DNA of 64,000 nt, taken from the NCBI GenBank assembly GCA_951813615.1, contig OX638377.1, forward strand, positions 5,055,739 through 5,119,738, read 5' to 3'. The notes below the pieces were generated by a model. The model had not been told where the DNA came from. It saw only the letters and a program-made list of their open reading frames with translations, and searched no databases. Shown here one piece after another: positions 21,384 to 52,400 of the stretch. Made by a program: the position numbers and the translations under genes. The stretch is from an uncultured Latescibacterota bacterium (lineage in GTDB: Bacteria > Latescibacterota > UBA2968 > UBA8231). Position 1 is the first letter of the stretch; each line of letters begins with the position of its first letter.

Positions 21384-22510
21384 GGAAGTGGGTCTGTGTA
21401 GTTTTGATGTTGTCTGGTATGAGTGTAGTATGGGTAGCTTGTTCGGTGGATCATCCGGTAGCCCCTTTGGGGCCAGCGGCAAAAATGACCACGAACGATT
21501 CGTCTGAGCGGCACTATATCCACTGGACCTGTGGTGCCAACGAATGGTCCCTACCAGCCGACTCCGTGTGGACGATCTTCTATGGCTCCAATCGGTTCTA
21601 CACGGATGGGCAGCGCGTCCAGATCTCCGAGTATCTCACCCCCAATTCCAGGCGCGTCTATTGGGCCGCTGAGACGGCCAGTGAACGATACAAGCGCGCC
21701 AGCGCTGGCTTGGTGCTGTCCGATAACACCTGCGCCCTTTGGAGCGACCTGATTGACCGGGACACCTCTGTGGTCCGCATCTATCGCGGTGAGGTCAAAT
21801 GGCACTACCGGGACTATCCGGATCATTCTCAATACGCGCTGGTAGAAAACGAGGAGACCTACCGCATCGCCTATGTCCGGGACAGCTTGGTGGTTCACCG
21901 AGATTTTGACTACTGGTTCGACCGCGATCCACACCCGACGGCCTTGGGCGACGCCCAGGCGTACTATCCTTTCAACTTCAGTCAGACCGCCATAGACACT
22001 CTGCCGAACGTGCCCGAAGATGACCGGCCCTACTTGCTTGATGTGGTGTGCGTCGGCGACGAGCTCCCTGAGTTCTTACGGCCAACGGCGACGCAGACGA
22101 CGGTGCGGTCTGCGGGTGGAGGAGGTGATGACAGCTACATTGGTGTTCAGTCCTCTGAAGAGGCGGAGGATCTTACTCCGGTGGCAATAGATTGTGGCTC
22201 GGTCCCGCAAGAGGTTCTCGATTCCCGCGGTTTGTTAGATGAGCTTCAAGAAAATCGCGACGAAAATCATGCTGTTTGGGCGGAGGAAGTGCAGGCTTTT
22301 ATCGAAAGTCTTGGTATCGAAGAGCTAAAGGAATGTCTTGTTCCGTTGAGCTATGAGCCTCTTACGTATCGCTATGACCCTCCTTGTACAGAGCATAATG
22401 AAGCATATGTTGCGCATAAGGAAACGGACCATCTGTTTAACGCTGCGCAAAGAGCTTTGGAGCAACTGGAAGAAGAGCATGGAATTGCTCCTGAATGTCG
22501 ATCTTTGTAG
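21380..22510 (+). CDS. hypothetical lipoprotein (orphan)
   Basis: It has a signal peptide with a lipobox-like VWVAC. I recognise no known motifs. The C-terminus is acidic and helical. The start overlaps the preceding stop (ATGA). Confidence 0.6.
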   Translation: MRKWVCVVLMLSGMSVVWVACSVDHPVAPLGPAAKMTTNDSSERHYIHWTCGANEWSLPADSVWTIFYGSNRFYTDGQRVQISEYLTPNSRRVYWAAETASERYKRASAGLVLSDNTCALWSDLIDRDTSVVRIYRGEVKWHYRDYPDHSQYALVENEETYRIAYVRDSLVVHRDFDYWFDRDPHPTALGDAQAYYPFNFSQTAIDTLPNVPEDDRPYLLDVVCVGDELPEFLRPTATQTTVRSAGGGGDDSYIGVQSSEEAEDLTPVAIDCGSVPQEVLDSRGLLDELQENRDENHAVWAEEVQAFIESLGIEELKECLVPLSYEPLTYRYDPPCTEHNEAYVAHKETDHLFNAAQRALEQLEEEHGIAPECRSL

Positions 22511-31651: not shown

Positions 31652-34036
31652 CTATCCTTTTGGCATTCGGTAGCCGACGCGAGGCTCGGCAAAGATGTAC
31701 GTGGGGTTACTCGCGTCGTCGCCCAGCTTGCGGCGGAGTCTCCGGACGAGGGTGCGGAGCACCCGCACATCGCCGGAGCTAGTCAGGCCCCATACCCTGC
31801 GCAGCAACTGGGCGTGGGTCAACACCCGTCCGGCGTTGACCGACAGCTCAAAGAGCAGTTCGTACTCCGCGGCGGTCAGTTGCACCGGCTGGCCAGCTAT
31901 CGTCACGTAGCGCTTGGCATAGTCAATGGTCAGGCCGTCCAGCACGTAGGGTTCCGACGGCTCGGCCTGATATGGATTCGTCTGCCGGCGCAGGGCCGCT
32001 CGGACCCTCGCTACTAACTCCGTTGGCGAGAAGGGCTTGACGATGTAATCGGTGGCCCCCTGCTCAAAGGCCCGTGCGATGACTTGGTCCTTGCCGTACC
32101 CAGAGACGAAGATGATCGGCACATCGGCAGTACGGCGGATGGACTTCATCAGGTCGATTCCGTCGGAGTCGGGCAGCACTAGGTCGAGCAAGACCAAGTG
32201 GGGCCTTTTCTCCTCTGTGAGAAGAAGCGCATCTTGGGGGTCCGGGGTCACTATCGACGTGAAGCCCCCCTCCGAAAGCGCGTCCCGGATGTACCTCAGC
32301 GCTTGGGGGTCGTCGTCCACCACCAAAATGCAGGCATCCTCGCTCTTTTCCTGCTCCGGGTGGGTGGCGAGCTGAGGAGACTGGGTTGTTGCACTCGTCC
32401 CGGCCTCTTCGACCACCGGGATGGTGAAGGTAAACCGCGCGCCGAGGCCCAGCCCGCCGCTCTCAGCCCAGATGCGGCCACCGTGCGCCTCTACGATCCC
32501 CTTGCAGATGGCAAGGCCCAGACCCGAACCGCCCGTTTCGCGTTTCCGGTCCTCGCCGTCGATCTGGGAAAACTTCCTAAACAGGTGCGGCAACCGATCG
32601 GCGGGTATCCCTCTGCCCGCGTCGGTGACGGAGATCGCCACGTAGAGCTCCTCCCGCACGACGGCCACCTCAATGGCGGACGACTCCAGCGAGTGCCTTG
32701 CCGCGTTGGCAAGGAGGTTATCCAAGACTTGGACGATGCGTTGTCGGTCTGCCATGACCAAGGGCAGGTCTGGTGCGAGGTCGAGATTGAGAGCGTTACT
32801 CTCGCTGCCACTTAGAAAGGTGTTCCTGGCTCGGTCCACCAAGCTGGCAACCTCCGCTGGTTCGGGATGGACCGGCAAGGTGCCCGTCTCGATGCGCGCC
32901 ACGTCCAGCAGATCGCCGATCAGCCCGCGCATGTGGTCGACCTGCTGGACGATAATCTGGTGAAACTGGCGCGACTCGGCGGGGTCCAAGTCGGCTGAGG
33001 CCTCCAGCAGAGTGGTTGCAGAGCCTTTAATAGAGGTCAGCGGGACGCGCAACTCGTGGCTCACCATTCCGAGGAACTCGGCTCGCAGTCGCTCCAGTTC
33101 CTCCAGCGGTGTCATGTCCTGTAGCGTGACGATGACCGACTCGACCTCGCCGTCCTCCGAATGGATGGGCGTGGCGTTTACCAGCGTGGTCACCGACCGG
33201 CCGTCAGGGGCCTGAATGACGATCTCCTCGGTGCGGACGACCTCGCTGCTACTCAACACCTGCGCGAGGGGAAAATCGCCCAGAGCTATCTCGCTCCCAT
33301 CCGCACGTCGGATGGTAACCATATTGATGAGCTGCTCTATAGAGTCTCCTGGCATCCGCAGGTCTTTTATAATCCTTCGGGACTCCCGGTTGAGGGATAT
33401 CGGTACGCCCGTCTGGGCGTCGAAGACTGCCACGCCTACAGGAGAGGTGTTGATTAAGGTTTCTAGGTCGGCTCTGGCCCGTCGCTCGTCGCGGTACTTG
33501 CGGGCGTTGGAGATGACCAGCGCCGCTTGGGATGCAAACATGACCAAGAGCTCCTCGTCTTCGCGGGTGAACTCTTGCCCGAGACCCCTCTTTCCCAAGT
33601 AAATGTTGCCCGTGTTCTCGCCTTGGTAGTGGATCGGGGCCCCTAGGAAGGCGCTTACGCTCAGCTCAGCGGGGAGGGCAAACTCGGGAAGGCCCTGCGA
33701 TCTACTGTAGCTGGTAAAGTCCCGGACTCTCAGCGGTCCCGAAATGTTGCTTAGGCGTTCTAATAACTTATCCCCTTCGGGAACCTCCCATAACCGTTGG
33801 CTCTCCTCGACCGTCAGGCCAGAGGCCAAGAAATCTTCCACCTGCCTTGAATCGTCCAAGGTGATGATCACGCCGTACCGGGCGTCGGTCAACGACCGGG
33901 CGCTGTCCAAGATCCCCTGCAATACCGTGTCGAGGTCGAGGCTTTCGTTGATGCGGAGGCTGGCCTCGCTCAGCTTGGAAAGGCGGTTTTGTAGTGTCTC
34001 TATCTTCTGTTGGTCACGCTCGTCAGCGTTCTTCAA
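31652..34036 (-). CDS. single-polypeptide two-component system: GAF-PAS-HisKA-HATPase-REC-OmpR/PhoB-type winged helix
   Basis: 794 aa with no TM helix. The H-box is SHELRVPLTSIKG. The G-boxes are DAGRGIP and GGSGLGLAI. The receiver has ILVVDDDP...LVLLDLVLPD...KPF. The wHTH region has LTAAEYELLFEL...VRRLRRKL...VGYRM. GGAGGAG lies 5 nt upstream of the TTG start. Confidence 0.9.
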   Translation of the reverse strand: MKNADERDQQKIETLQNRLSKLSEASLRINESLDLDTVLQGILDSARSLTDARYGVIITLDDSRQVEDFLASGLTVEESQRLWEVPEGDKLLERLSNISGPLRVRDFTSYSRSQGLPEFALPAELSVSAFLGAPIHYQGENTGNIYLGKRGLGQEFTREDEELLVMFASQAALVISNARKYRDERRARADLETLINTSPVGVAVFDAQTGVPISLNRESRRIIKDLRMPGDSIEQLINMVTIRRADGSEIALGDFPLAQVLSSSEVVRTEEIVIQAPDGRSVTTLVNATPIHSEDGEVESVIVTLQDMTPLEELERLRAEFLGMVSHELRVPLTSIKGSATTLLEASADLDPAESRQFHQIIVQQVDHMRGLIGDLLDVARIETGTLPVHPEPAEVASLVDRARNTFLSGSESNALNLDLAPDLPLVMADRQRIVQVLDNLLANAARHSLESSAIEVAVVREELYVAISVTDAGRGIPADRLPHLFRKFSQIDGEDRKRETGGSGLGLAICKGIVEAHGGRIWAESGGLGLGARFTFTIPVVEEAGTSATTQSPQLATHPEQEKSEDACILVVDDDPQALRYIRDALSEGGFTSIVTPDPQDALLLTEEKRPHLVLLDLVLPDSDGIDLMKSIRRTADVPIIFVSGYGKDQVIARAFEQGATDYIVKPFSPTELVARVRAALRRQTNPYQAEPSEPYVLDGLTIDYAKRYVTIAGQPVQLTAAEYELLFELSVNAGRVLTHAQLLRRVWGLTSSGDVRVLRTLVRRLRRKLGDDASNPTYIFAEPRVGYRMPKG

Positions 34037-34190
34037 TTCATCTCCTCCATCGGGATGCGGAATGTGTGGTTATAGGATCATTGAGGTTTTTAAACCAGAA
34101 AAAGCTACCTGTTTGGTGGACATACAACGTCGTCTGTCATACGACTGAATCGAGCAGATTGGAGAATTTTAGAACAGTCTTTATTAGGGG

Positions 34191-34236
34191 CCATATATGG
34201 TCTTTTTTAATTAAAGGGCTATATATGGTCTTTTTT
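34191..34236 (+). promoter_or_regulatory. two 28-bp-phased palindromic boxes (CCATATATGGTCTTTTTT / CTATATATGGTCTTTTTT)
   Basis: The cores start at 34191 and 34219. They lie in the AT-rich region between the divergent HK-RR gene and the 34685 gene. Confidence 0.6.
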
Positions 34237-34403
34237 CAGCTATCATTTTATCGATTTCTATTTGTTAATTAATTTTTTATTCATCCTAAACAATAATTAA
34301 AAGATTGTGAGGCGCAAATGCCAATGAGCTAACCATAGGCGACAGACGAGTGATACCAAGCCGAGGCAACGCGGAGGACTTCTTGGGAAAGGGACCCATA
34401 AAA

Positions 34404-34684: not shown

Positions 34685-34921
34685 TTGATGGGTATTTCAA
34701 CGATGAGACGAATGGGGCGTCGCCACGAGCCTAGTGCTGGTCGGCACGAAGAGCGAGGGCAGGATAACCAGCCGGCGCTTGCACGGGCCGCGTCTCCAGC
34801 CGGGTCCCTTCTGGTGTTCCTTGCCCTGTTCGCCTGCGTCGCCATGATGGCCCCCCAGCCGCCCACGCGCAGACGGACAGCGACACGATTCCCACCGCGA
34901 GGCTCAAGAGCCTCACGGTGA
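34685..34921 (+). CDS. 5' segment encoding the signal peptide of the downstream ORF, separated from it by a frameshift in a C6 tract
   Basis: This frame encodes ...GSLLVFLALFACVAMMAP and then runs into Arg-rich nonsense. One extra C at 34851-34856 would read MMAPPAAHA|QTDSD... straight into the 34918 ORF. Confidence 0.6.
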   Translation: MMGISTMRRMGRRHEPSAGRHEERGQDNQPALARAASPAGSLLVFLALFACVAMMAPQPPTRRRTATRFPPRGSRASR

Positions 34922-36984
34922 CGCCGGTCACCGGCAGCCTCGTCTGGTTCAAGCCGGCGTTCCGCAAGGGACACCGGGGTCCCTACACCGCCTGGGTGAC
35001 GCACGACGCGACCGAGGTGACCCTTGATGCGGTGGCGACATGGGAACAGGCCCGGGTGGAGATGCCGGACGACGTGAACGGCATCGAAGGCACGCAGATC
35101 GAGGTACCGGCGGACGCGAGGAAGGTCCGTCTGATCAAGGTGTTCACCGGCCCCGAGGACCAACCCTGCCGGGAGGACTTGAGGCTGTGCTATTCCTATT
35201 CGCTCATCGTCAAGCGCCCGGGCAGTGCGCTGACGGGCGAGCTGGAGAAGCGCCCGTCGGTGACCGACGGCGGGTCGCTCCGCTACCGCTTCAGGGTCAA
35301 GCTAAGCGCGCCGGTCGAGCTCTCGCTCTCGGAATGGCAGAGCGACGTATTCACCGTCACCAACGGCACGATCACTGCCGCCAAGCACGTCGGCGGCGTG
35401 GGGTCGGGCCCCAACGGCGAACCGCTGGCCAAGACCTGGGACCTGACGGTGAACCCGACGGCCAACAGGACGGAGGTCGAGTACACGAGCAAGTCGAGTT
35501 GCACCGTGACCGGGGCGGTGTGCACGGTGGGCGGGCTGAAGCTCGGCAGCTTGAATTCGCTCACTTTCCGTAGAGGGGCGGATGGTGTGCCGAATGTCTC
35601 CATCGCGGACGCGAGCGCGATCCCGGAGGACGGGGAAATCGTGTTCACCGTCAGCATGACCAAGGCCTCGGACCATTACGCATATGTCGGCTTCCGAACC
35701 ATCGACTCCGGCGACGGAATGGGCACCGCCACGCCGAGCGAGGACTACCGGCCGCAGACCACTAAGCTCGTCATCCCCCCCGGAAAGACAGAGGTGAGCG
35801 CGGGCGTCGCCCTCATCACGGACCCGGAGGCCACCACCGAGAAGACGATCGAGGTGCAAATCGAGAACGCGAGGCTGGTCAACGGCAACCAAACGCTCTA
35901 CACGCTCCCGATCGATCGGGGCACGGCGACGGGCAGGATCGACTGTCGCGCCACGACCCGCACCCACTGCGGCATCGAAGTGGGCGAATCGGTCATCGGC
36001 AGGCTCGCCAGCACTTCCGACCGGGACTGGTACAGAGTGACGTTCGAAGCGGGAAAGGCCTACAGGATACACATGCCGGCAGGGATCGTCGATCCGCACT
36101 TCCATGGTGTGTACGACGATGGTGGCACGCTGATCGACGGCACGGCGAACGACGACGCCAGCGATGGCGACCTCGCAAGTACGGTCCATTTCCAGCCGAC
36201 GCGGAGCGGCGTTTACTACCTCTCGGCAGGGTCCAGCATCGGCGCCGGTCGATACAATCTCACCGTGACAGAGCTTGTCGATGACTGTTCTGCCAATACG
36301 GGCACCACCTGTTCGGTCACCGTGGGCGGTTCAGCCAGCGGGGAGATTCAGTTCGTTGGCGACCGGGATTGGCACGAGGTGCAGTTCGTATCGGGAACGG
36401 AGTACCGGATCGATCTGAAGGGTGAGGATGAGGACGCCTCCTTGACGCTGCCCGATCCGTACTTCCACGGAATCTACGACGACAGCGGCAATGTCATCAG
36501 CAATACGGAGAACGACGACGGCCTTGGTTCCAATGCAGGCAGCCGGGTCACGTACACGGCGACTCGGACCGGCGCCCACTATCTTTCCGCGGGTAATTTC
36601 GAGAGTGACGACGTACACCCGGATGATGCCGTCGGCACGTACAAGCTCGAGGTGACCGACACGAACTCTGGAAAGGTGGTGGTGGACGACCCGCTGGCCC
36701 TGCCCGACCGCCCTCAGTTGGCGCAGAACGCACCCAATCCATTCAACAGTCAGACAGTGCTGGCTTACTTCTTGCCCGCGGCCGGGCCAGTGCGCTTAGA
36801 CGTGTTTTCGTTGACCGGACAGCGAGTGGCCGTCTTGCAGCACGGGCTGCAACAGGCCGGCTATCACCAACTGCGCTGGCAGGGCCGCGACGACGCAGGG
36901 CATCCCCTCGCCAGCGGCATATATCTGTATCGACTAGTGACCTCAGAAGAGATTTTGACCCGCAAGCTCATCCTGCTGCGATAG
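34918..36984 (+). CDS. secreted protein with cadherin-like, Calx-beta and 2x PPC (pre-peptidase C-terminal)-like modules and a T9SS-type C-terminal sorting domain
   Basis: LKSLTVTP... indicates a cadherin-like beta sandwich. EDYRPQTTKLVIPPGKTEV indicates Calx-beta. DRDWYRVTFEAGKAYRI and DRDWHEVQFVSGTEYRI indicate PPC modules. The C-terminus is LAQNAPNPFNSQTVLAYFL...SGIYLYRL...KLILLR. The real N-terminus probably lies in the 34685 ORF. Confidence 0.85.
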   Translation: MTPVTGSLVWFKPAFRKGHRGPYTAWVTHDATEVTLDAVATWEQARVEMPDDVNGIEGTQIEVPADARKVRLIKVFTGPEDQPCREDLRLCYSYSLIVKRPGSALTGELEKRPSVTDGGSLRYRFRVKLSAPVELSLSEWQSDVFTVTNGTITAAKHVGGVGSGPNGEPLAKTWDLTVNPTANRTEVEYTSKSSCTVTGAVCTVGGLKLGSLNSLTFRRGADGVPNVSIADASAIPEDGEIVFTVSMTKASDHYAYVGFRTIDSGDGMGTATPSEDYRPQTTKLVIPPGKTEVSAGVALITDPEATTEKTIEVQIENARLVNGNQTLYTLPIDRGTATGRIDCRATTRTHCGIEVGESVIGRLASTSDRDWYRVTFEAGKAYRIHMPAGIVDPHFHGVYDDGGTLIDGTANDDASDGDLASTVHFQPTRSGVYYLSAGSSIGAGRYNLTVTELVDDCSANTGTTCSVTVGGSASGEIQFVGDRDWHEVQFVSGTEYRIDLKGEDEDASLTLPDPYFHGIYDDSGNVISNTENDDGLGSNAGSRVTYTATRTGAHYLSAGNFESDDVHPDDAVGTYKLEVTDTNSGKVVVDDPLALPDRPQLAQNAPNPFNSQTVLAYFLPAAGPVRLDVFSLTGQRVAVLQHGLQQAGYHQLRWQGRDDAGHPLASGIYLYRLVTSEEILTRKLILLR

Positions 36985-37055: not shown

Positions 37056-37181
37056 TAGCACTCTATCTTGGGGTGTATCGAAAACTGTGACCCAAGACCT
37101 ACGCCTTCAAGCCGTCCGACAATTCTGAGTTCCCCCTTTTCCTCCTTCAGATTACAGCTAGACAATCTTTCTTCAAAAAGA

Positions 37182-37300
37182 CCATATATGGCCCTTTTTA
37201 TAATTTATACCATATATGGTCTTTTTGTTATTTTATATCATATATGGTCTTTTGATTTATTTTTTGTTTTATATGGTCTTTTACTCGACTAAAAATACCC
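37182..37300 (+). promoter_or_regulatory. four 28-bp-phased palindromic boxes (CCATATATGGTCTTTT) plus the conserved 15-mer CGACTAAAAATACCC
   Basis: The cores start at 37182, 37210, 37238 and 37267. The 15-mer is at 37286-37300. The array lies about 180-300 nt upstream of the giant-gene ATG. Confidence 0.65.
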
Positions 37301-37328
37301 CAATATAAATAATTATTATTGTAGTATC

Positions 37329-37357
37329 TTGACAATTTTTTATTCCTTAAATAAATT
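37329..37357 (+). promoter_or_regulatory. candidate sigma-70-type promoter TTGACA-N17-TAAATT for the 7291-aa gene
   Basis: It has a perfect -35 hexamer at 37329-37334 and a 17-nt spacer. The -10 at 37352-37357 matches 4 of 6 positions. This would give a leader of about 113 nt. Confidence 0.3.
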
Positions 37358-37476
37358 TTTGATTTTATGTGATTATGGTGCGGCTTCTTTGTCGGGATGA
37401 GGGATGAGGTGTTGATTGGCCGAACTCTATTTCCAAAACGCAGCGAGTGTTATCGCATCTTTCCGAAAGGCGATCT

Positions 37477-40400
37477 ATGTCCAAAGCCAAGCCCTTTTAC
37501 GTGTATGATTTGCTATCCTTTTGTTCCGTGTCGGCCCGTTCGGTGTCGACGCTCTTCCTCGCCTTCGCCGCGCTGCTGACCGCGGCGGCACCCGCCCAAG
37601 CACAGACCGAAGTTCCGAGCAACTGGCCACTCATCCCTTCCGGTTTGAGCGCCGGCGATCAGTTCCGTCTGCTGGTGGTGGTGGAGGAAGCGAGGGACGC
37701 CACCGCAACCGACATCGCGGAATACGACAGCTTCGTTCAGACGGAAATCAGCCAGAACGGCCACGCGTCGATCCGGGACCATTCCAGCATTTTCAAGGTT
37801 CTGGGCTCGACGGCGACCGTCGACGCCAGGGATCATACGAACACGACCTATACCGCGTCGGACACCGGCGTGCCCATCTACTGGCTCAATGGCTCCAAGA
37901 TCGCCGACGACTACGACGATTTCTACGACGACGACTGGGACGGCAACAGCAAGGCAAATCCCCGATACGAGGACGGCAGCGCCGTCAACCCAGCCAACTC
38001 CTTCCGAATCTGGACCGGATCGTTTAATGACGGCACGACCTTTACTAATCAGGGCGGCCAGCCGTTGGGAGGAAACGGTGACGGCACCGGGAAGACGCGA
38101 ACGGCACGACCCACCGGGGGGACGGGCACACTCAACAACGGCCAGCGTGACGTCGCCACAGAGGTCCTCCCTGTCTTCGCCCTTTCCGGCGTCTTCGAAG
38201 TCGGCACCTCTTCCGCCGCCACCGTTTCGAATATTCAGATCACCTCCACCAACGGCGGCGACGGCGAATACGTGGCCGGCGACGAACTGGAATTCACCGT
38301 CACCTTCAGCGAAGCCGTCACCGTCACCGGCTCGCCGCAACTGAATTTCGTCACCAACGACACGGGTGGATCGTCCCCGGAAACGAGGCAGGCCACCTAC
38401 GACTCCGGCGCCAGCACCGGCACGGAACTGGTGTTCAACTACACGATAACGAGCGGGGATTTCGACGAGGACGGCATTGAATTGCCGAGAGACCCGATCG
38501 ATCTCAACGGCGGAACCATCGTCTCGCAGGCATCGAGCGATAACGCGGACCTGGCGTTCGCGGGCCGCTCCGACCAGGCGGCGCACAAGATCCACATTAA
38601 GCCAAAGCTCGTATTATCGAGCGTCAGCGTGGTTTCCGATCCTGCGTCGGCGGCAAACGGCTATGTGACCGGTGAAACCATCCGCATCGCCGTGACCTGG
38701 GACAAGATGGTCCGGGCGGTCACCAATCCGGTGGGCACGAGCAGCGACCCGAACTACCTGCCCGGCGGCGCTTCGCAAGTCACCATCAAGTTCGATTCCG
38801 ACGACGGCCTTGCCGCCTACTCCGAGGCGAGCGACGACTATACGCTGCACTTCGACTATGTCGTCCAGCCCGACGACTGGGACGACGGGGGATTGGTGAC
38901 CAACAGCTACCTCGTCCGCAACGGCGGCGCGATCACGCGCAAGGAAGTGACCGATGGCGTCGCAAGATTCGTGCGGGCTGCCGAGACCGGCCTGGCCCTG
39001 CCGCAACAAATCGCGCACAAGGTCAACGTAAACCGGCCCAAATTCAGCAGCCTCGCCGTCACCTCCTCGCCGGCCACGGGCGACACCTACCAGACCGGAG
39101 AAACCATCAAGGCCGAACTCACCTTCGACCAGACGGTGACCGTGGACGAGACCGGCGGCACGCCTCGGGTCACGATAGAATTGCAATCCGAGGGCGTTGG
39201 CGCCCCGGTCGAGCACTATTTCGATTATGCCAGCGGCAGCGGTACGGCGACGCTGGTGTTCGAATACGTGGTCCAGGCCGGGGACTCCGATGACAACGGC
39301 ATCACGATCCCTGCCAAGGCGCTGAAACTCAACGGCGGCACCATACGCTCTGCCAACGGCACCGACCTGCATTTAGAGGGTGGCGTGCCGGACGGCGGCA
39401 CCGATTACTCCGGCCACAAGGTCGACGGTGGCACCGTGGTCGCAGTGACCGTCTCCTTCGACGCCGCCACGTACACCGCCAGCGAGGAAGGCGCGGACGC
39501 CACCGTGACCGTCAACCTGAGCGCCGACCCCGAACGCGACGTCGTCATTCCCATCGTTGCGGAGGGTGCAAACGGCGGCAGCGCGAATGACTTCACGCTC
39601 ACCTCCCAGACCGTCACCATCGCCAGCGGGGCAACCTCCGGCACCTTCAAGGTCAGGGCGACCGACGACCTGATCGACGACGACGGCGAGACCGTCGCGC
39701 TCAGCTTCGGCGGGCTGCCGACCGGCGTTACCGCCGGCGCCCAGGCCACCGCCAGCGTCTCGATCACGGACGAGGACACGCGCGGCGTGATCTACAGCAG
39801 CCAGTCCGTCCGCGTCCCCGAAGGGCTTATTACGACTGCCGACGTGTTCACGATGAAGTTGGCCACGCAGCCGAGCAACGACGTTCGCGTGACTTTCGCC
39901 GAGGACCCCGATCAACAACTCGACATAACCCCTTCCCTGAATTTCACTCCGAGCAACTGGGGCACGCCGCAGCCTGTAAGTGTAGTGTGGGCCGCCAACG
40001 CCAGCCCGGACGAGAATATCGTGATCACGCTCACGCCCGAGTTCCAAGGAAGCGATTACCGCGACCTGGTGACTCCGGCAACCGTGACGCTCACCATCTT
40101 CGACCGGAGCCGACCAAGGCTGGAGAGCGCGACAGTCGACGGAACCAGCCTGGTACTGACCTACAATCAGGACCTCGACGACACCTCCGTGCCCGCGCAG
40201 GGCGACTTCGAGGTGACGGTTGATGGCGCGGACGTCTCGGTCAGTAGCGTCTCGATCGGCAGTAGCGTCTCGATCGACGGCGCAAAGGTTACCCTGACGC
40301 TGGCGACCGCGGCGGTGATGGGGGATGAGGTCGAGGTTTCCTATACGGTCCCAACCACCAATCCCATCCAGGACGAGGACGAGAACAAGGCCGGGGCGCT

Positions 40401-43400
40401 AACCGACCGGGCCGTGACCAACAACTCGCCCGACACCACCGCACCGAGCTTCAGTTCGGCGACCATCAACGGCGATATGCTGGTCCTCACGTACGATGAA
40501 GACCTGGACACGGGTTCGACGCCTGCGTCGGGTGCCTTCGAGGTGACGGTGGATGGCGCGGACGTCTCGGTCAGTAGCGTCTCGATCGGCAGTAGCGTCT
40601 CGATCGACGGCGCAAAGGTTACCCTGACGCTGGCGACCGCGGCGGTGATGGGGGATGCGGTCGTGGTTTCCTACACGGTCCCGGCCAACAATCCCATCCA
40701 GGACGAGGCGGAAAACATGGCTGCGGCGTTCAGCAACGAGTCGGTGACCAACAACACCGGGGAAGATTCGGACGCCACGCTCAGCGCCCTCACCCTCACA
40801 GAGACGGACGGCACGGCCATATCGCTGAACCAGACGTTCGCCTCCGGCACAACGAGCTACACGGCCATGGTTGCGGTCGGTATCGAGCAGGTCACCATCG
40901 TCGGCACGCCAACAAGCAGCGCCGCAAGTGTGGCCTACACGCCTTCGACCGACGCTGACCCGAACGAAGACGACCACCAGGTCGATCTGTCCTTCGGCGA
41001 GAATACGCTCAAGATCGTGGTTACCGCCGCCGACGCAACCGAGGAAACCTACACGGTCACGGTCGAGCGCGAAAAGCCGGTTGTTGAGATCATGGGCATA
41101 CAGGTTGCCGAAGGCGATGCCTCGGCGAGCCTCGGCGTTTCTCTCACGCCTGCGGTCAACGAGGAGGTGGTCGTGAACTACGAGACCCGGGACTACCCGG
41201 ATACAGGTAGTCCGGATCACGCATATGCCGGCTACGACTACACCGCGGTTTCCGGCAGCCTGACCTTTGCGGCCAACGAAACCGCCAAAACCATCGAGGT
41301 GGAGATTCTGGAAGACGACCTCTACGAAGGGGGAGGGGAGGTAGACGGAGAAACATTTTGGGTGTATCTCGCATTGCCTGCGGGGGCGAAAAACGCGAAC
41401 GTGGGTGTTCCGGGCGCAGTGCTGATTCGCGATAACGACGACCCGCCCACGGTCAGCATCGCCGACGCGAGCGCGGCAGAGGGCGACCCGGTCTCGTTTA
41501 CGGTGAGCCTGTCGGAGGTGAGCGGCCTCGACGTGACCGCCTCCTATACGACCTCGGTCAAAAGCGACGACACGGCGATTTCGGACACCGATTTCACTGC
41601 GGTAACCGGCGGAACCGTGACAGTCGCCGCCGGGAGCACGACCGCCACGGCGGATGTGGTTACCGTCGAGGACACCCACTACGAGGCCGACGAGACTTTC
41701 ACCGTCACCCTGAGCGCGCCACCGGCGGGCACGCACTTGAACGCGACCCTGTCCTCGGATCCGGTCGTGACCGGGACCATCACCAACGACGACGTTCTCG
41801 AACAGGTCACCGGGGTCACCCCGACGGTCGGTAATGCGAAGCTCACCATCAACTGGACCGCGGTGGTCGGCGCGGGCGGCTACAAGGTGCAGTGGAAATC
41901 CGGCACCGAGGACTACAGCGACTCGGCCACCCCCAGCCGTCAGGCGACGATTTCATCCGGAACCACCACGTCGTATGAACTCACCGGCCTGACCAACGAT
42001 GTCGAATACACCATTCGCGTCGCCGCCACGCACAGTGCCGCCGATGATGGTGCATGGTCCAGTGAAGTCTCGGCGACGCCCCGCACGCCGAACTCGCCTG
42101 CGGGGGGCGAGCCGACGATTTCGGGCGAGGCGCTTGTGGGCGAGGAATTGACCGCCGATGCCAGCGGAATCACCGATGCGAACGGCACGACCACGGCGAC
42201 CTACGCCTATCAATGGATTCGGGTGGACAGCGACGGCGTCAGCAATGCAACCGACATCGCCAACGCAACCGGCAGCACGTACACCCTAATCGCCGACGAC
42301 GAGAACAAAAAGATCAAGGTCAAGGTGAATTTCACCGACGACGCGGAGTATGAGGAGGAGCGAACGAGCGCGGCCTATCCCGCCACCAGTACGGTCGGTC
42401 CTGCCCGGAGCGACGACGCCACGCTCAGCGCCCTCACCCTTGCAGAGACGGACGGCACGGCCATATCGCTGAACCAGACGTTCTCCCCCGGCACAACGAG
42501 CTACACGGCCGAAGTCGCGGACGACGTCGCCCAGGTCACGATCGCCGCGACCGCCAACCATTCCGCCGCCAGCGTCGCCTACACGCCTTCGACCGACGCC
42601 GACACGGAAGAAGACGGCCACCAAGTCGATCTGTCCTTCGGCCAGAATACGCTCACGGTCGTGGTGACCGCCCAGGACGAAAGCACGGAAACCTACACGG
42701 TCACGGTCACGCGCAAGAAGAGCGACGACGCCACGCTCAGCGCCCTCACCCTTGCAGAGACGGACGGCACGGCCATATCGCTGAACCAGACGTTCTCCTC
42801 CAACAGAACGAGCTATACGGCCGAAGTCGAGGCCGACGTCCCTCGGATCACGATCGCCGCGACCGCCAACCATTCCGCCGCCAGCGTCGCCTACACGCCT
42901 TCGACCGACGACGACACGGAAGTAGACGGCCACCAGGTCGATCTGTCCTTCGGCCAGAATACGCTCACGGTCGTGGTGACCGCCCAGGACGAAAACACGG
43001 AAACCTACACGGTCAGGGTCATGCGCAAGCCGGTGACGGTTGGATTAGCCACGACAGGACATCAGACCACCGAAGACAACACGTCCCTTGAATTCACGGT
43101 AACGCTCAGCCCTGCGGTCGACGAGGCCGTGACGGTGGACTACCAGACTGTTTCAAATCCACCCGAAGACTATCCAGATGCCCCCGTCGCAGGCGAGGAC
43201 TACGTGGCGGCGTCCGGCAGCCTTACCTTTGCGGCAAACGAAACGTCGAAGATCATCGAGGTACGTATCCTGGAGGACCTGGCGGACGAAGAGGACGAGA
43301 ACTTCTGGCTGCAGCTCCTCGAGCCTGCGGACGCCACGAACGTGGATATTCCTACGAACAAAGTGTGGGCGACGATCCTCATATTCGACGACGACGATCC

Positions 43401-46400
43401 ACCTACCCTCGGCATCGCCGACGCCAGCGGGGACGAAGGGAATCCGGTTTCCTTCACCGTGAGTCTGTCGGCGGCCAGCGGCAAGGAGGTTTCCTTCCGC
43501 TACAAGACTTCAGTCGAAAGCGGCGACGACGCCACCTCGGGCACGGATTTCACTGCGGAATCCGGCCAGGACGTTACCATCGAACGCGGAAACGCGTCCG
43601 TCACGCTGGACATCGCTACGATCGAAGACACCGACTTCGAGGCGGACGAGACCTTCACCGTCACCTTGAGCGAGCATTCCTCGGTCACGGAAATGAACGC
43701 GACCCTGGAATCGGATCCGACCGCGACGGGGACCATCGTCGACGACGAGGAGCTCGCACAGGTCACCGGCGTCACGGCGACCGCTGGCAACGGCAAGCTC
43801 ACCGTCGAGTGGACCGCGGTGGCCAACGCCCAGGGCTACAGGCTGCAATGGAAGTCGGAAAACGACACGGACTACAGCAATTCGGCCACCGACAACCGCG
43901 AGGCGACGATTTCGTCCGGGACGACCGTTTCCTACGACCTCACCGGATTGACCAACGGCGTCGAATACACCGTTCACATCGCCGCCACCCACAACCTCGC
44001 CGGTGACGGCGCATGGTCCACCGAAGCCTCGGGGACGCCCTTCGTCCCGGACACCAGCATGCCGACCCTGACGCTGGCCACCGTCAGCGGCAACATGCTG
44101 GCGCTGACCTACGACAAGGACCTAGACGAGGACTCCGTGCCGGCGGCAAGCGATTTCACCGTGACCGTGGCGGGTTCGTCCGTCGCCGTGAACGACGTCT
44201 CGGTGAGCGGCAAGGCGGTTACCCTGACGCTGGCCACCGCCGCCGAGCACGGTAACACGGTGAGTCTGAGCTACACGATCCCGGCCAACAACCCCATCCA
44301 GGATACTTCCGGAAATGACGCGGCCGCCCTGAGCGCGCAGACCGTGACCAACAACACGCCCGATACCACCGCGCCCGCGTTGAGCAGCGCCGACGTCCAC
44401 GGCGCATCGCTGGTGCTGACCTACGACGAGGACCTGGACGGCAACTCCACGCCGGGGGCAAGCGATTTCACCGTGACCGTGGCGGGTTCGTCCGTCACCG
44501 TGAGCAACGTCTCGGTGAGCGGCAAGACGGTTACCCTGACGTTGGCCGCAGCCGTCGAGCACGGGAACACGGTGAGCCTGAGCTACACGATCCCGGCTAC
44601 CAACCCCATCCAGGACGCTGCCGGGAACGATGCGGCCGCCCTGAGCGGGCAGGCGGTGACCAACGACACGCCCGACACCACTGCGCCGGTGCTTGACACG
44701 GCGACCGTCAACGGCACATCGCTGGTGCTGACGTACGACGAGGACCTGGACGAGGACTCCGTGCCGGCGGCAAGCGATTTCACCGTGACCGTGGCGGGTT
44801 CGTCCGTTGCGGTGAGCGGGGTTGAGATAAGCGGCAAGGCGGTTACCCTGACGCTCGCCGCCCGCGCCCCATACGGCGACACGGTGAGCCTGAGTTACAC
44901 GGTTCCCGCCAGCAACCCGATCCAGGACGTTGACGGAAACAATGTGATGGGCCTGAGCGGGCAGACCGTAACCAATATCACGACGACGACGGCGGTGGCG
45001 CTGAGTGTGGATCCTGCGTCGGTGGACGAGGACGCCGGGGCGACGACGGTGACGGTGACGGGGACGCTGGACGGCGCGCCGCGCACGGTGGACACGGAAG
45101 TAACGGTAGCGGTGGGTGCGTCGGGCGACGCGGCGACCAGTGGGACCGACTACGCTGCGGTCGCCGATCTGACGCTGACGATTGCCACGGGCGCAACCTC
45201 CGGGACGGCCACGTTCTCGCTGACGCCGACGGACGACGACGTGGACGAAGCGGACGAGACCCTGTCGGTGACGGGCGCGACCACGGGCCTGACGGTGACC
45301 GGGACCACGGTGACAATCACCGACGACGAGGCGCGCGGGGTCACGGTCTCGGCAACCACGCTGAGCGTGCCCGAGGGCAGCACGGCCACCTACACGGTGG
45401 TGCTGACCTCGGAGCCGACAGCCGACGTGACGGTGACGCCGTCGGTGGCCTCGGGTTCGACCGATGTGACGTTCAGTCCGGAGTCGCTCACCTTCACCTC
45501 GGACAATTGGGGGACAGCCCAGGAGGTGACGGTGTCGGCGGCGCACGATTCCGATATCGACGACGACGAGGAGACGATAGAACATGCGGTGTCCGGCGGC
45601 GACTACGGGGCCAACAGCGTGACGGCCTCCGACGTTGCGGTGACCGTGACCGACGACGACACCGCTCCGGCGATCATTGCGGGGGGCGTGGAGGTCGCCT
45701 CCTACTCTCTGGCGACCTACAACACCTATGGCGTGGACGAGATCATTGCGGTCAGCGTGACGTTCGACAGGGACGTGAATGTAACCACGGCCGGCGGGAC
45801 GCCCTACGTCAAGGTGGAGTTCAAGAACGAGGACGTCAACGCCGTCGCTACCGAAAAGCATTTTAGCTACGCGAGCGGTTCCGGTACGCCCACGCTGCTG
45901 TTCGAGTACGAGGTGCAGGCCGCCGACCGGGACGACGACGGGATCAGGATCGAGAGTAACGCGCTGGTGCTGAACGGCGGCGTCATCCAGGATACCGACA
46001 GCCGGGACGCCCTGCTCACGCATGCCGCGGCCGGCAGGCAGCAGGCACACCGGGTCGACGGGAGCGAGGTGGTCGGGCCGGCGGAGCTGACGGGCTTCAA
46101 CCTCCGCCTGGCAGGCCTCAATAGCTCTGTGTCGTTCAGCCCGAGTTTCGATCCGGAGATCACGGCCTACACGGCTTCGGTCGACTACGGTGTCACACAC
46201 ATTACAGTGCGGGCAACCGCGGAGGAGGGCGGTGATGTGACCTATGCGGCCGAGGTGGTGGAAGGTTTCCAGTCTGGGAGACTGGTAGTTGCCCTAAGCG
46301 CGGGTTCGAACGAAATCAGGATCACGGCGAAGCGGCGCGGCATCCCCAATCGGGTCTATACCCTTACCGTAACGCGGGGGAGGCCGACCGTCACCATCGC

Positions 46401-49400
46401 CGCATCCGAATCCTCCACGACATACCGTCTCGAAGACGTGTCCTTCACGGTGACCCATGATCAGGTGGCTTTCAGCGATGAGATGGACGTGGACGTGGCG
46501 TTCGAGCAGGACCAGACCTTCCTTCCGGCATCGGATCTGTCGCGCACCGTGACCATCCCGGCCGATGAATCTTCGGTCACGCTGACCCTCGGAATCGGCG
46601 CCTTCACCGGCGGGGCCACCGCGAACGGTACTTTCACCGCGGCCATCGCCCAGAGCGACGGCTACGCCATCGGCACTGCCGGTTCCGCAAGCGTGGATTT
46701 CGTTGTGGCGGATCCGGCGCTCACGGTGCGCTTCGACAACGTGGCCTACGAATTCTTCGAGGATGACGGCGACGTCACGCTCGACATCGTTGCGGAGACG
46801 GCGCCGGATGTGGTGCTATCGGATGCGTTTTCCGTGACCGTCCAGACGAGGGGCCGCGATGACTCCGCGGTCATCATCACCGACTATATCTTCACTGGCG
46901 GCGGCGTGACCTTCGAGGCGGCCGACTTCGCCGCGTCGGACGGCGCTCTGGCGGCAACCAAGTCGATCGAGCTGCAGCTGGTCGACGACAGCGTCACGGA
47001 AGGGGAGAAATCGTTTTGGATCGAGCTCTCCGCGAACAATTTCCCCCCGGCGGCTACCCTGCTTCAGGGCGACGGAACCGCTTGCTCCGGCACATGCCGT
47101 TCGAAGGTGACCATCGTCGACGACGAGAGCCCTGGCCAGGTTACTGGCGTGGAGCTCGATCCGGGCGCCGGTGCGTTGACCGTGGACTGGACCGCCGTGG
47201 TCAGCGCGACCGGGTACAAGGTGCAGTGGAAATCCGGCACAGAGACGTTTGCGGATGCGGCGACCGACAACAGAGAGGTGACCGTAACGCCCGGATCGAC
47301 CACCAGCTACACCATCACCGGACTCACCGACGGCACGGACTACACGGTGCGGGTGATCGCCACGAGGACCGATTCCCCGGACGGACCGGCCTCCGCCGAG
47401 GTCACCGGCACGCCGGGACTGCCGACGCTGACGATTGCGGACGCCACGGCGACGGAAGGGAATGCGGTGGAATTCACGGTGACGCTGAGTCCGGCGGCGG
47501 ACATGGCGGTGTCGGTGGAGTACGCCACGAGCGACGGCACGGCGACGTCGGACGCTACGCACGAGGACGGGGCGGACTACACGGCGGCGCCGGACGACGA
47601 GGCATTGGTGATATTGGCGGGTGAGACGAGCGCGACGATCAGCATCGAGACCGGAGACGATACGGTGGACGAGGACGACGAGACCTTCACGGTGACGCTG
47701 TCGTCCCCGACGTCGAATGCGGTGCTCGGCACGGTCGTGGCGGCGACCGGAACCATTGAGGACAACGACACGGACCCGGCCGAGGTCACCGGCGTTGCGT
47801 TCGAGAACGCGCCTGCAAACGGCGAGTACGCGCTGGGCGATGAGATCGAGGTGAGCGTGACCTTCGACACGGCGGTGGAGGTGACGGGCGAGCCAAGGGT
47901 CCGGCTGGAGATGCCCGGCACGGAGGCCGCAAGCTACGCGGACTACGACGCGGACGAGAGCACCGATACGGTGCTGGCGTTTTTCTACACCGTGACGGCG
48001 GACGACGACGATGCGGACGGGATTTCCGTGGTCGCGAACAGCCTGGAGCTCAACAACGGCACCATCTTCAACAAGGAGACGACAGTGGTTGCGGCGCTGG
48101 CGCACGACGCGGTGCAGGGCGGAAACATCCGCACGCGCTCGGTCGAGAGCATCGCCATCACGTCCGATCCCGAGGTGAGATCGCCTGCGCCGGAGGGAAT
48201 TTACGGTCCCGGCGAGGTGGTGGAATTCACGGTAACGTTTGCGGCGGCGGTTACGGTGGATAACAACGACGGGAATCCGAAACTGGTCTTTGCGGCAAGC
48301 GACGGCGCCCGGCAGGAGGCCGCCTATGTGAGCGGTACGGGCACCACGGAGTTGGTATTCGAGTGGACGGTGCTAGCGGACGTGCCGGGCGAGGAAGGCG
48401 CAATCGATATTCCGGCGAATACGACCGGCGGGGGCACGTTGCTCACCGACGGCGGCCTGGTGCTGAACGGCGGCACGATCGAGGACGCGCAGGACCGGGG
48501 CGTGAACATCCGCCATGGAGAATATGCGACCGAATCGGAGGTGGATACCACGCCGCCGGTATTGGCCAGCGGCGCGGAAGGCGCGACGGTCGATGGGACG
48601 ACGCTGGTGCTGACATTCGAGCGGGCAAGCGGGGTTGCGGACCATCTGGACGGGAGCTCGGTCCCGGCACCGGAGAAGTTTATAATCATTGCGGCGGGGA
48701 GCGCGCAGCAAGCGTCGGCGGTGGAGGTGGACGGCGCGACGGTGACGCTCACGCTTGGTTCGGAAGTGGGCCACGCGCAGGATGTGAAGATGCAGTACCA
48801 GGGGAGCGACGAGAACCCGATCCGGGACCTGTGGGGCAACGACACGCCTCCGTTCAGAGATCGCGCGGTGCGCAACGATAGCCCGGAACCGGAGCTTTCC
48901 ATCACCGACGTGACGGTGGCCGAGGACGCTGGCGAGGCCACGTTCACGGTGACGCTGAATGTGGAGAGCGGCGAGGAGGTGACGGTGGAGTACGCCACCA
49001 GCGACGACACGGCGAAGGCGGATTCGGACTACGAGGAAGCCACCGGCACGCTGACGATTGCGGCGGGTGAGACCAGCGGTACGTTCGATGTGACGGTGAA
49101 CAACGACGTGGTCAGCGAGAGCGACGAGGCATTCACCGTCACGCTGTCCGGCGCGGTAGGTGCGACCATCGCCACGGCGACGGCCACGGGCACGATTACC
49201 GACGACGAGGAGGTCCCGACGCTGACAATTTCGGACGCTACGGCGACGGAAGGGAGCGCGGTGGAATTCACGGTGACGCTGAGTCCGGCGGCGGACCAAG
49301 CAGTGACCGTGGCGTACGCTACCACCGACGGCACGGCGACGTCGGACGCTGCGCACGAGGACGGGGCGGACTACACGGCGGCGGCGAGCGACGCGGAACT

Positions 49401-52400
49401 GACGATTGACGCTGGGGAGACGAGCGCGACGATCAGCATCGCAACCGGGAACGACGCGGTGGACGAGGACGACGAGACCTTCACGGTGACGCTGTCAGAC
49501 CCGTCGTCGAACGCAGTGCTCGGCACCGACCAGGCGGCGACCGGTACCATCGTAGACAACGACACCGACCCGGCCGAAGTCACCGGCGTCGCATTCGAGA
49601 ACGCGCCGTCGAGCGGCGAGTACGTGCTGGGCGACGTGATCGAGGTCAGCGTGACCTTCGACACGGACGTGGAGGTGACGGGCGCGCCAAGGGTTCGGCT
49701 GTCAATGTCCGGCACGGCGGCCAGCACCAGCTACGCGCACTACGACGGCAACGAGAGCACCGACACGGTGCTGGCGTTTCGCCACACGGTGACCGCGGAC
49801 GACGACGACGCGAATGCAATCTCCGTGGCTGCGAACGGCTTGGAGCTCAACGGCGGCACGATCAACAACAAGGGGACGAGCGTAGCCGCAGTCCTAGATC
49901 ACGACGCGGTGCAGGGCGGAGACATCCGCACGCGCTGGGTCGAGAGCATCGCCATCACGTCGGAGCCTGAGGTGGGGGAATTGGTGCCGGAGGGGATTTA
50001 CGGTCCCGGCGAGGAGGTGTCGTTCACGGTAACGTTCTCGGCGGCGGTCACGGTGGACGACAGCGGTGGGGACCCGGTGCTGATCGTCGCGGCGAGCGAT
50101 GGCACCCGGCAAGAGGCCGCCTATGCGAGCGGCTCGGGCACCACGGCGCTGGTATTCGAGTGGACGGTGCCTTCGGACGTTTCGGGCGAGGAAGGCGCGA
50201 TCGAGATTCCCGCGAACACGACCGGCGGCGGCACGCTGCTCACCAATGGCGGTCTGGTGCTGAACGGCGCGACGATCGAGGACGCGAGCAGCCGGGCCGT
50301 GAACATCCGCCACGGGGCGTACTCGACCGGGTCGGAGGTGGATACTACGCCGCCGGTGGTGGCCAGCGGTGCGGGCGGTGCGACGGTCGATGGGACAAAG
50401 CTGATGCTGGCGTTCGAGCGGGCGAGCGGGGTCGCGGACCACCTGGACGAGAGCTCGGTGCCGGCGGCGACGGATTTTGTGGTCACTGTGGCCGGGAGCG
50501 CACAGACGGTGTCGGGGGTGGCGGTGGACGATGCAACGGTGACGCTCACCTTGCAGTCGCCGGTGGGCCACGCGCAGACGGTAACGGTGAACTACTCGCC
50601 GGGCACGGACCCGATCCGGGATATGTGGGGCAATAACGCGGTCGCGTTCAGCGATCGTGCGGTGCGCAACGACAGCCCGGAGCCGGAGCTTTCAATTGGG
50701 GACGTGACGGTGGCCGAGGACGCCGGCGAGGCCACGTTCACGGTGACGCTGGACGTGGTGAGCGGCGAGGAGGTGACGGTGGACTACGCCACCAGCGACG
50801 ACACCGCAGAGACGGATTCGGACTATGACGAAGCCAGCGGCACCCTGACGATTGCGGCCGGGGCAACGAGCAACACGTTCGATGTGACGGTGAATGACGA
50901 CTCCGTCGGCGAGGGCGACGAGACCTTCACGGTGACGCTGGCCAGCGCGGTGAACGCAACCATCGCCACGGCCACGGCCACGGCCACGATCACCGACGAC
51001 GAGACCCCGACGCTGACGATTGCGGACGCCTCGGCGACGGAGGGGAATGCGATGGTGTTCACGGTGACGCTGAGTCCGGCGGCAGACGAGGCCGTGACCG
51101 TGGCGTACGCCACCAGCGACGGCACGGCGACAGCGGACGCCACGCACGAGGACGGCGCGGACTACACCGCGCCGGCGAGCGACGCGCAGTTGACGATCGC
51201 GGCTGGCCAGACCAGCGGCACGATCAGCATCGCAACCGGGAACGACGCGGTATTCGAGGGTGACGAGACCTTCACCGTGACGCTATCAGACCCGTCGTCG
51301 AACGCGGTGCTCGGCACCGACAAGGCGGCGACCGGTACCATCGAGAACAACGATGCTGCGTCAACCGATGCGGCACTGAAGTCGCTGGTGCTGAAGGTCG
51401 GTGGCAGCGACGTGGACCTGACGCCCGTCTTCACCGCCACCACGTACAGCTACGAGGCGGATGCTGCGAACATCGCCGCAACCGTAGAGGTGGTGGCCGA
51501 GTCGAATCACGCCAAGGCAACCATCGCGATCAGCGGGGACGACGACACCACATCCCCCGGCGAAGCGGCGTTGCCTTTGGCGTTCGGGGAGAACACGCTC
51601 ACCGTGACGGTGACGGCGGAGGACGGCAACGCGACGCAGACCTACACGGTGAAGGTGACCCGGGGCTTGCCCGTACTGAGTTGGAAGCATGGCCTACTTG
51701 TTCTCATCGAGAACGTCGGCGAGGTGACGCTCACCGCCACGCTGACGCCCGCGAGCATCGACGAAGTGACGGTTGACTATGCGACGCAGGCCGCCGGCGC
51801 CACGCCCGGCGAGGATTTCATCGAAACCAGCGGAACGCTGACCTTCGCGGCGGGCGAGACCGAGAAGACGGTCAAGGTCACGATCCTGGACGACAATCTG
51901 TACGAGCCCGGCGGCGCGAGTGACGTCAACGTGATTTTGACCGATCCGACCGGCACCGCGGTGCTGGGATCGGGCCTGGGTAACAAATCGATACTCAGAC
52001 TTACCGACAATGATGATCCGCCAACGGTGACGATGGAGAACGTCACGGTCGATGAGGACGCGGGGACGATGGAGTTCACGCTGTCGCTCAGCCACGGGGT
52101 GGAAACGGACGACCTGGAGTATGAAGTCGCATCGAGTGGGGTGGGTGGCACCGCCACTTCCGGGTCCGACTACGAGTCGTTTATCTCCGGCTCCAGCGCC
52201 ACCCTCGCGGTTCCTTCGCGTGCGACCTCGGCGACGTTCAGCGTGTCCATTCTCGACGACGACATTGACGAGGATGACGAGACGATCACCCTGCAGTGGA
52301 GGCAACTCAGCCTCACCCAGTACGTGGCGGAAGCCTCGCAGTCTATTGACGTCACTGGCACGATCACCGACGACGACACCCGAGGCGTGACGGTCTCGGC

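Follow-up and report, generated by a model that had tools for sequence, protein, structure and literature searches.

What drives the genes for giant surface proteins in an uncultured Latescibacterota bacterium, and what is the role of the short palindromes repeated ahead of several of them? The question arises from a 64,000-nucleotide stretch of contig OX638377.1 (the whole 64-kb stretch is hereafter called the window), in which a first-pass annotation had described palindromes recurring upstream of island genes and had taken them for the classical assembly platform of a AAA+ enhancer-binding protein (EBP) encoded nearby. We find that the palindromes form three intergenic arrays, A, B and C (Table 1), and that comparative genomics ties them to that protein, a fusion of beta-propeller, AAA+ and HTH_8 domains. 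Since the regulator has no GAFTGA loop and its targets have no -24/-12 promoter, it would act independently of sigma54. We propose, with a probability of roughly 0.65, that it is an atypical EBP that would activate sigma70-type promoters from upstream, with the array palindromes as its operators.

Phased palindromes in three intergenic arrays

Scanning the whole window for the palindrome core CCATATATGG with at most one mismatch, and using 100 shuffles as control, gave seven matches where 0.53 are expected, a count that 0 of 100 shuffles reached. The matches begin at 20266, 20294, 34191, 34219, 37182, 37210 and 37238, all of them intergenic and none outside the three arrays, which hold 2 (A), 2 (B) and 3.5 (C) copies with starts 28 bp apart within each. 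The repeat unit is a 16-bp palindrome of the AGACC-N6-GGTCT type with the consensus AGACCATATATGGTCT, or 16-22 bp in its extended form, (AAA)AGACCATATATGGTCT(TTT). Three of the eight cores are perfect, and the variants are CCATATATAG (twice), CTATATATGG and TCATATATGG. A fourth copy had been annotated at 37267, upstream of the gene for the 7291-aa protein; this position reads TTTTATATGG, with three core mismatches, and only its right half, TATGGTCTTTT, is perfect (37272-37282), lying 29 bp beyond the third copy. The other three copies at this gene, the pairs in arrays A and B, and a period of 28 bp save for that one interval (28, 28 and 29 bp in array C) stand as first described. The half-site TATGGTCTTTT, again with at most one mismatch, occurs nine times against 0.26 expected, always within the three arrays. 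A directional unit, with right half and T-run always facing the genes, was rejected on this half-site count and on array A, where the left halves are the perfect or better ones; the unit is therefore a true, partly degenerate palindrome of 16-22 bp (AAAAGACCATATATGGTCTTTT).

Array A lies between the minus-strand regulator gene, about 190 bp from its start codon, and the plus-strand gene at 20658. Array B separates the minus-strand gene of a hybrid histidine kinase-response regulator (HK-RR) from the plus-strand gene at 34685/34918, and array C precedes the gene for the 7291/7301-aa protein, with no divergent gene beside it. The window has about 60% GC and its intergenic regions are AT-rich; Rfam gave no family match anywhere in the 64 kb.

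Could the arrays be a non-regulatory repeat, such as a miniature inverted-repeat transposable element or repetitive extragenic palindrome, tandem weak terminators, or cruciform DNA? A single strand of array C folds far better than its shuffles (z = -6.8), and a T-run follows the palindrome in some copies. Repeated palindromes make such a fold a trivial consequence, however, and no terminator-like site was found in the window, so the terminator or hairpin reading was discarded. Nor are the arrays dispersed, an outcome that would have counted against the first-pass annotation: the complete genome OZ220721.1 (6.26 Mb) has a single copy of the exact two-site 28-bp pattern, adjoining the regulator, and the complete OZ220690.1 (6.60 Mb) has two, one that adjoins the regulator and precedes a giant-protein gene and one that precedes a gene for a 687-aa leucine-rich repeat (LRR) lipoprotein. 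With one or two arrays per complete relative genome, always upstream of genes and including one beside the regulator, and with a site that covaries with a protein helix (below), we consider a non-regulatory origin most improbable.

The exact 20-mer AAAGACCATATATGGTCTTT failed as a probe of the genome collection, matching only unrelated Granulicatella, Streptococcus and Carnobacterium, and none of the window copies is a perfect 20-mer. This perfect 20-bp palindrome is common in the genomes of those three genera (L001-L027), presumably as an unrelated Lactobacillales operator or repeat.

The regulator and its sites among relatives

The AAA+ domain of the regulator matches PF00158 at E = 2e-51 and its C-terminal helix-turn-helix (HTH) matches HTH_8 at E = 7e-9; neither a signal peptide nor a transmembrane segment was predicted in the protein. 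It is, as annotated, the only protein of its kind in the window, a uniqueness that does not extend to related genomes, which hold up to 10 or more paralogues. The propeller-AAA+-HTH_8 family comprises 1704 database clusters at E <= 1e-50, with at least 10 paralogues in one genome (OX638329.1), and is greatly expanded in sponge-associated Latescibacterota. A metagenome scan with the regulator returned a single distant match only.

The relatives are sponge-associated Candidatus Latescibacterota, some of them metagenome-assembled genomes labelled Gemmatimonadota, and by their likeness the window too belongs to a sponge-associated member of the phylum. In at least five, orthologous regulators (77-97% identity) have a two-site 28-bp array immediately upstream, in divergent orientation: OZ220721.1, OZ220690.1, VXML01000093, JAPPEG010000012 (regulators about 78-81% identical) and ERZ18545484. 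In relatives at about 81% identity (L028, positions 9446-9952; also L034, L047 and L049), a small gene for a secreted protein of about 150-170 aa lies between array and regulator; the window has no such gene there.

Counting GAC-N8-GTC with an AT-rich centre in the 500 nt upstream of 54 family regulators, and in the rest of the same loci, we obtained densities of 1.74/kb versus 0.057/kb, an approximately 30-fold enrichment. Across about 60 family members from both subclades, palindrome and HTH recognition helix moreover vary in concert. Members with the helix STLYGKM(R/K)(K/R) have the site (A/G)GACCATAT..GGTC (ACCATAT), among them the window, L051, the L028-type loci, L055, L072, L076, L089, L107 and others; STLY(N/H)KM goes with GGACCGTAT(A/G)CGGTCC (ACCGTAT) in L052, L054, L062, L064 and L078; and STL(Y/F/R)SKM goes with (G/A/T)CGATAT..CG or (G/A)CGATAT..CG(T)C in L056, L061, L063, L067, L091, L098, L106 and L110. 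Orthologue arrays and helix-site covariation together support the claim that the palindromes are cis-regulatory sites tied to the island's sole propeller-AAA+-HTH_8 regulator. The covariation table is also a starting point for a recognition code of Fis-type HTHs in this family.

A different factor might occupy the palindromes, for instance a nucleoid protein, the island's OmpR-type hybrid HK-RR or an EBP paralogue encoded elsewhere, the adjacency of the regulator being coincidental. Array B does abut the HK-RR gene, the sites are AT-rich in a 60% GC genome, and paralogues with similar helices exist in related genomes. OmpR-type domains, however, bind direct repeats spaced by about 10-11 bp, and the palindromes are inverted repeats that recur every 28 bp. 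The arrays also accompany the EBP gene at loci and in genomes where no HK-RR gene is adjacent, and covariation between site and HTH_8 helix is hard to explain by another protein; we regard this alternative as improbable.

A better fit to an OmpR/PhoB-type winged-helix domain is a separate element, the 11-bp direct repeat TCACC-N6-TCACC. The window holds six such pairs against 0.14 expected, at 20395, 22682-22752 and 34404-34451, in tracts spanning 20373-20410, 22682-22752 and 34404-34451. Given the binding preference of OmpR-type domains, the HK-RR hybrid is the natural candidate for this module and not for the palindromes, and the TCACC repeats are probably read by it. The window scan found no TCACC pair near array C, and the annotated combinatorial use of the two elements, with TCACC near the promoters of 20658, 22816 and 34685, is descriptively correct.

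The GAFTGA loop and sigma54 promoters

Aligned with solved bacterial EBPs (bEBPs) at E = 1e-60, the regulator keeps GETGVGKE (Walker A) and LFLDEIG (Walker B) intact. Against the structural references, the solved FlrA and NtrC/FleQ AAA+ domains, the rest of the domain is conserved as well, and a four-residue gap with substitutions falls exactly at GAFTGA: ELFGCENKTS----TSEVGK versus ELFGHEKGAFTGAITARKG in the solved proteins. The window segment reads ELFGCENKTSTSEVGK / ELFGCENKTSTSEVGKVELA, where bEBPs read ELFGHEKGAFTGA...G(K/R).ELA. Among the best 120 database matches (P0001-P0120), GAFTGA is lost in all 46 listed relatives of at least 69% identity, typically to ELFGRENETATSEVGK, and GAFT(S/G)A or a close variant is kept in the 74 listed relatives of at most 66% identity. 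Apparent intermediates of decay, HEKGATSE and HEKGATSADSRR, look like loss of the Phe. By neighbour-joining order and identity rank, the truly GAFTGA-less sequences group together (P0070 and P0087 were misclassified by the regular expression).

No -24/-12 element (GG-N10-GC) of at least 9/12 was present in the four intergenic regions 20077-20657, 22511-22830, 34037-34917 and 36985-37480; the best there score 8/12, only one keeps both invariant dinucleotides, and under strict criteria the best matches window-wide fall inside genes. Latescibacterota relatives clearly do use sigma54 promoters. GAFTGA-retaining paralogues have two or three AGAC-N8-GTCT sites with a period of 18-22 bp and, some 130 bp downstream of them, a perfect sigma54 promoter, TGGCAC(G/A)CTTTTTGCA (canonical TGGCACGCTTTTTGCA), which was found downstream of the sites in 22 of 48 loci; it points away from the regulator at a near-constant 257-282 nt from its start codon. 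These paralogues thus use the palindromes as upstream activating sequences (UASs) in standard bEBP geometry, which marks the palindromes as the family's cognate sites. A sigma54 promoter within 600 nt upstream was found at 22/48 GAFTGA-retaining versus 0/13 GAFTGA-lost loci (Fisher p = 0.002, a value that ignores phylogenetic non-independence).

Would the window regulator then work as a classical sigma54 enhancer, its hexamer assembling on the arrays and remodelling sigma54-RNA polymerase (RNAP) at a -24/-12 promoter through ATP hydrolysis? The Sigma54_activat and HTH_8 architecture, the tandem palindromes upstream of genes, and close paralogues that do exactly this with the same type of site all speak for it. 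Against these stand the deletion or substitution of GAFTGA in the window protein and its whole subclade, together with the missing -24/-12 elements in the four intergenic regions and at all 13 GAFTGA-lost loci. The classical mechanism implied by the first-pass annotation is not borne out here, and we hold it distinctly improbable.

At GAFTGA-retaining loci (L067-L121; e.g. L083, L072 and L099), a conserved inverted repeat of about 50 bp lies between the palindromes and the sigma54 promoter, roughly 160-230 nt upstream of the regulator start codon. It reads AGAGCCAATCCGACTAT-N16-ATAGTCAGATTGGCTCT followed by a T-run, and its left arm contains CCGACTA, like the CGACTAAAAATACCC box of the window (below). 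This repeat could be an intrinsic bend or cruciform in place of integration host factor (IHF), or else a terminator.

Proposed activation, its parallels and the island context

In window orientation, GAFTGA-less loci share a layout in which the regulator gene, encoded on the other strand, is followed by a conserved leader of 190-350 nt, then by two or three palindromes and an A-rich box. The identical 15-mer CGACTAAAAATACCC reported after arrays A and C is confirmed at both places (Table 1). Across loci the box has the consensus (C/G/T)(G/A)(A/C)CTAAA(A/G)(A)TAC(C), with the short forms CTAAAAATACC and TATTGTAGTAT, and it begins at a fixed 18.5-19.5 bp from the midpoint of the proximal palindrome, irrespective of the variant there. 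The box is present at window arrays A and C and at L051, L052, L055, L056, L061, L063, L064 and L042. None of the other identities tried for it (a -10, a Bacteroidetes-type -7 on the other strand, a -35 or an IHF site) fits well. Our best guess is a putative proximal UP-element or alpha-subunit C-terminal domain (alpha-CTD) subsite, which the box resembles. A TATT(G/A)TAATAT block often follows 27-33 nt beyond the box at GAFTGA-less loci. Beyond array C stands a sigma70-like promoter candidate, and similar ones, TTGAC(A/T)-16/17-TAnnnT, follow the arrays in seven relatives (L042, L052, L055, L056, L062, L063 and L064); these candidates lie 50-140 bp from the proximal palindrome.

In L042 (OZ220690.1, positions 2850-5141), a full cassette of two palindromes 28 bp apart, a AAAAATACCCC box and a TTGACA-17-TATACT promoter candidate precedes the LRR lipoprotein gene, which is inserted between two ABC-transporter ATPase genes. 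By this arrangement the promoter cassette appears to travel with cargo genes. At L051, the locus with the 97%-identical regulator, the two-site 28-bp array recurs, with the same box and seven TCACC repeats behind it.

In the scheme that we infer, a dimer of the regulator's Fis-type HTH would physically bind each 16-bp palindrome as its operator, and tandem sites 28 bp apart would seed a higher-order AAA+ oligomer ahead of three island promoters driving genes for giant LRR/fn3/cadherin/Calx-beta surface proteins. A ligand in the cytoplasm may be the trigger, detected by the N-terminal beta-propeller/Y_Y_Y module and controlling oligomerisation. From its upstream position the regulator would act on sigma70-type RNAP at TTGACA-17-TAnnnT promoters 50-140 bp downstream, with the fixed-distance box CTAAAAATACC possibly serving as an alpha-CTD or bending site. 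The TCACC repeats would be an additional input for promoters A and B and the sole input at 22816.

The spacing is intriguing, if only suggestive. With 10.5 bp to a turn, a 28-bp period makes 2.67 turns; successive dimers would thus be rotated by 240 degrees and three sites would span eight full turns; the sites of sigma54-dependent paralogues are about two turns apart. The 28-bp phasing, whose conservation had been proposed as a check, is kept only among the closest relatives, and elsewhere in the family the period ranges over 18-29 bp. Most window-clade members seen have 27-29 bp, with exactly 28 in the closest relatives and 20-25 in a few; by locus, GAFTGA-less periods are 28 bp in the closest relatives, L052 and L061, 27 in L062 and L064, 25 in L056 and L063, and 20 in L133.

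Repression or autoregulation is a serious alternative, if an unlikely one. The same regulator would then act as a TyrR-like oligomeric repressor, or as a roadblock on a divergent promoter, and would not activate the island genes. Arrays A and B do lie between divergent genes, array A close to the start of the regulator gene itself; repression of some sigma70 promoters is known for Caulobacter NtrC and TyrR; and the proximal site would overlie the -35 region if CTAAAAAT were the -10 element. No divergent gene accompanies array C, however, the best promoter candidates are found downstream of the sites and not beneath them, and the ancestral function seen in the paralogues is activation. We favour activation because every promoter candidate has the sites on its upstream side and because the paralogues work as activators.

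Several observations weigh against sigma54-independent activation by this regulator as we propose it. The GAFTGA-less proteins belong to a single clade, so that one event may account for the loss of both loop and promoter, and 26 of the 48 GAFTGA-retaining loci also have no sigma54 promoter within 600 nt, which makes absence by itself weak evidence. The sigma70 candidates are consensus matches in AT-rich DNA, two found against 1.5 expected in shuffles, and the CTAAAAATACC box is absent at array B and at L028-type arrays. Finally, related genomes contain paralogues with near-identical recognition helices, so cross-talk, or binding of another paralogue to arrays B and C, is possible.

It is possible, and we advance it tentatively, that the family has kept the states before and after an evolutionary change from sigma54-dependent to sigma54-independent activation. 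GAFTSA, sites at 18-22 bp and perfect -24/-12 promoters persist in sister paralogues; the window clade, with the same HTH and palindrome, would have deleted the loop, re-spaced the sites, taken up a sigma70-type promoter with the A-rich box, and become a dedicated switch for host-interaction adhesins. Such rewiring is documented by sister paralogues, some sigma54-dependent and others sigma54-independent, that share one type of site. If true, this would be a phylogenetically remote, naturally paired example of an EBP rewired from sigma54 to the housekeeping polymerase. Sensor-regulator, operator and targets would likewise form a testable regulatory circuit for uncultured sponge symbionts, the targets being giant LRR/cadherin/fn3 eukaryote-like surface proteins thought to mediate host interaction. 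As the arrays are ordinary transcription-factor binding sites, their general significance is moderate.

How does this compare with known systems? Classical bEBP UASs (NtrC at glnAp2, XylR, DctD, and NifA with TGT-N10-ACA) consist of at least two dyad sites of about 16-17 bp, 20-35 bp apart, each bound by an HTH dimer and together forming an oligomerisation platform. The GAFTGA-retaining paralogues conform to this fully; the window system shares the tandem dyads and the Fis-type HTH but has neither the sigma54-contact loop nor a -24/-12 promoter. Bacteroides hybrid two-component systems such as BT4663 fuse a periplasmic Reg_prop/Y_Y_Y module to HK-REC-AraC; the regulator shares the module, here without signal peptide or transmembrane segment and fused to AAA+ and HTH_8. 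Rhodobacter capsulatus NtrC, for its part, reportedly uses tandem upstream sites.

By its predicted features, the regulator falls functionally among the atypical EBPs already known. A preprint describes R. capsulatus NtrC, Caulobacter NtrC and NtrX as GAFTGA-less EBPs that regulate sigma70 promoters, and gives the two NtrC proteins a deleted L1/GAFTGA loop in an otherwise conserved AAA+ domain with a Fis-type HTH, as in the regulator (bioRxiv 10.1101/2023.06.06.543975, citing Bowman & Kranz 1998 for R. capsulatus NtrC). Both differ from it in being REC-domain response regulators of nitrogen genes: the regulator has a cytoplasmic double beta-propeller with Y_Y_Y, no REC and giant adhesin-like targets, and its phylum also contains sigma54-dependent sister paralogues that use this kind of site. 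The atypical EBPs VpsR, TyrR, HupR, HsfA, PhhR and NtrX likewise regulate sigma70-RNAP without a functional GAFTGA (PMC6158489). Vibrio cholerae VpsR, Escherichia coli TyrR and others resemble our system in having sites upstream of or abutting the -35, and VpsR also in controlling surface and biofilm-matrix genes; VpsR has a degenerate Walker B, however, unlike the regulator with its intact Walker motifs (PMC6158489). The VpsR/TyrR group differs further in its sensor domains and site sequences, and PMC6158489 mentions no 28-bp phased arrays for VpsR. What is new here is the fusion of a cytoplasmic Reg_prop/Y_Y_Y module to AAA+ and HTH_8, the phylum, and a cargo of giant eukaryote-like adhesins in a hypervariable island.

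Table 1. Positions in the window of the arrays, associated promoter-region elements, and genes.
Feature	Position	Strand	Description
Array A	20263..20306	no strand	two AGACCATATATAGTCT, at 20263-20278 and 20291-20306; 28-bp period
Array B	34188..34231	no strand	GGGCCATATATGGTCT at 34188-34203 and GGGCTATATATGGTCT at 34216-34231; 28-bp period
Array C	37179..37282	no strand	palindromes at 37179-37194, 37207-37222 and 37235-37250, plus right half-site at 37272-37282
Box CGACTAAAAATACCC	20315..20329	+	begins about 19 bp from the midpoint of the palindrome nearest the promoter in array A
Box CGACTAAAAATACCC, second copy	37286..37300	+	after array C
Sigma70-like promoter candidate	37329..37357	+	TTGACA-17-TAAATT; 10/12 consensus matches, 47 bp after array C
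Regulator, 1056 aa	16906..20076	-	Reg_prop beta-propeller repeats, Y_Y_Y, Sigma54_activat AAA+, AAA_lid_14, HTH_8
First targets after array A	20658..22510	+	241 aa and 376 aa, no Pfam match
Hybrid HK-RR	31652..34036	-	GAF-PAS-HisKA-HATPase-REC-Trans_reg_C (OmpR-type)
Target after array B	34685..36984	+	secreted protein; Calx-beta and PPC domains, FlgD_ig C-terminal domain resembling a type IX secretion system (T9SS) sorting domain
Target after array C	37447..59352	+	giant surface protein, 7291-7301 aa; SWM_repeat, Calx-beta, Cadherin-like, fn3

Genes that follow the arrays code for giant proteins, secreted or of the surface, with LRR, fn3, cadherin-like, Calx-beta and SWM repeats and FlgD_ig C-termini like those for T9SS sorting. 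Gene order on the left side of the regulator matches that in OZ220721.1, with 85-97% amino-acid identity. The island itself is hypervariable: L051 (positions 1-9344), identical in left-flank synteny, holds different giant LRR/fn3/Calx-beta genes from the window (20658-62627), and the cargo genes all encode eukaryote-like repeat surface proteins with C-termini resembling T9SS sorting domains. Exact sequence blocks recur in the 5' leaders of the island genes, CATAAGCCTTCCGAG twice (20484-20498 and 34510-34524) and TTTGTCGGGATGAGGG twice (34564-34579 and 37388-37403), against 0 expected; the blocks have no Rfam match, and their repetition suggests a conserved 5' untranslated region element downstream of the promoters.

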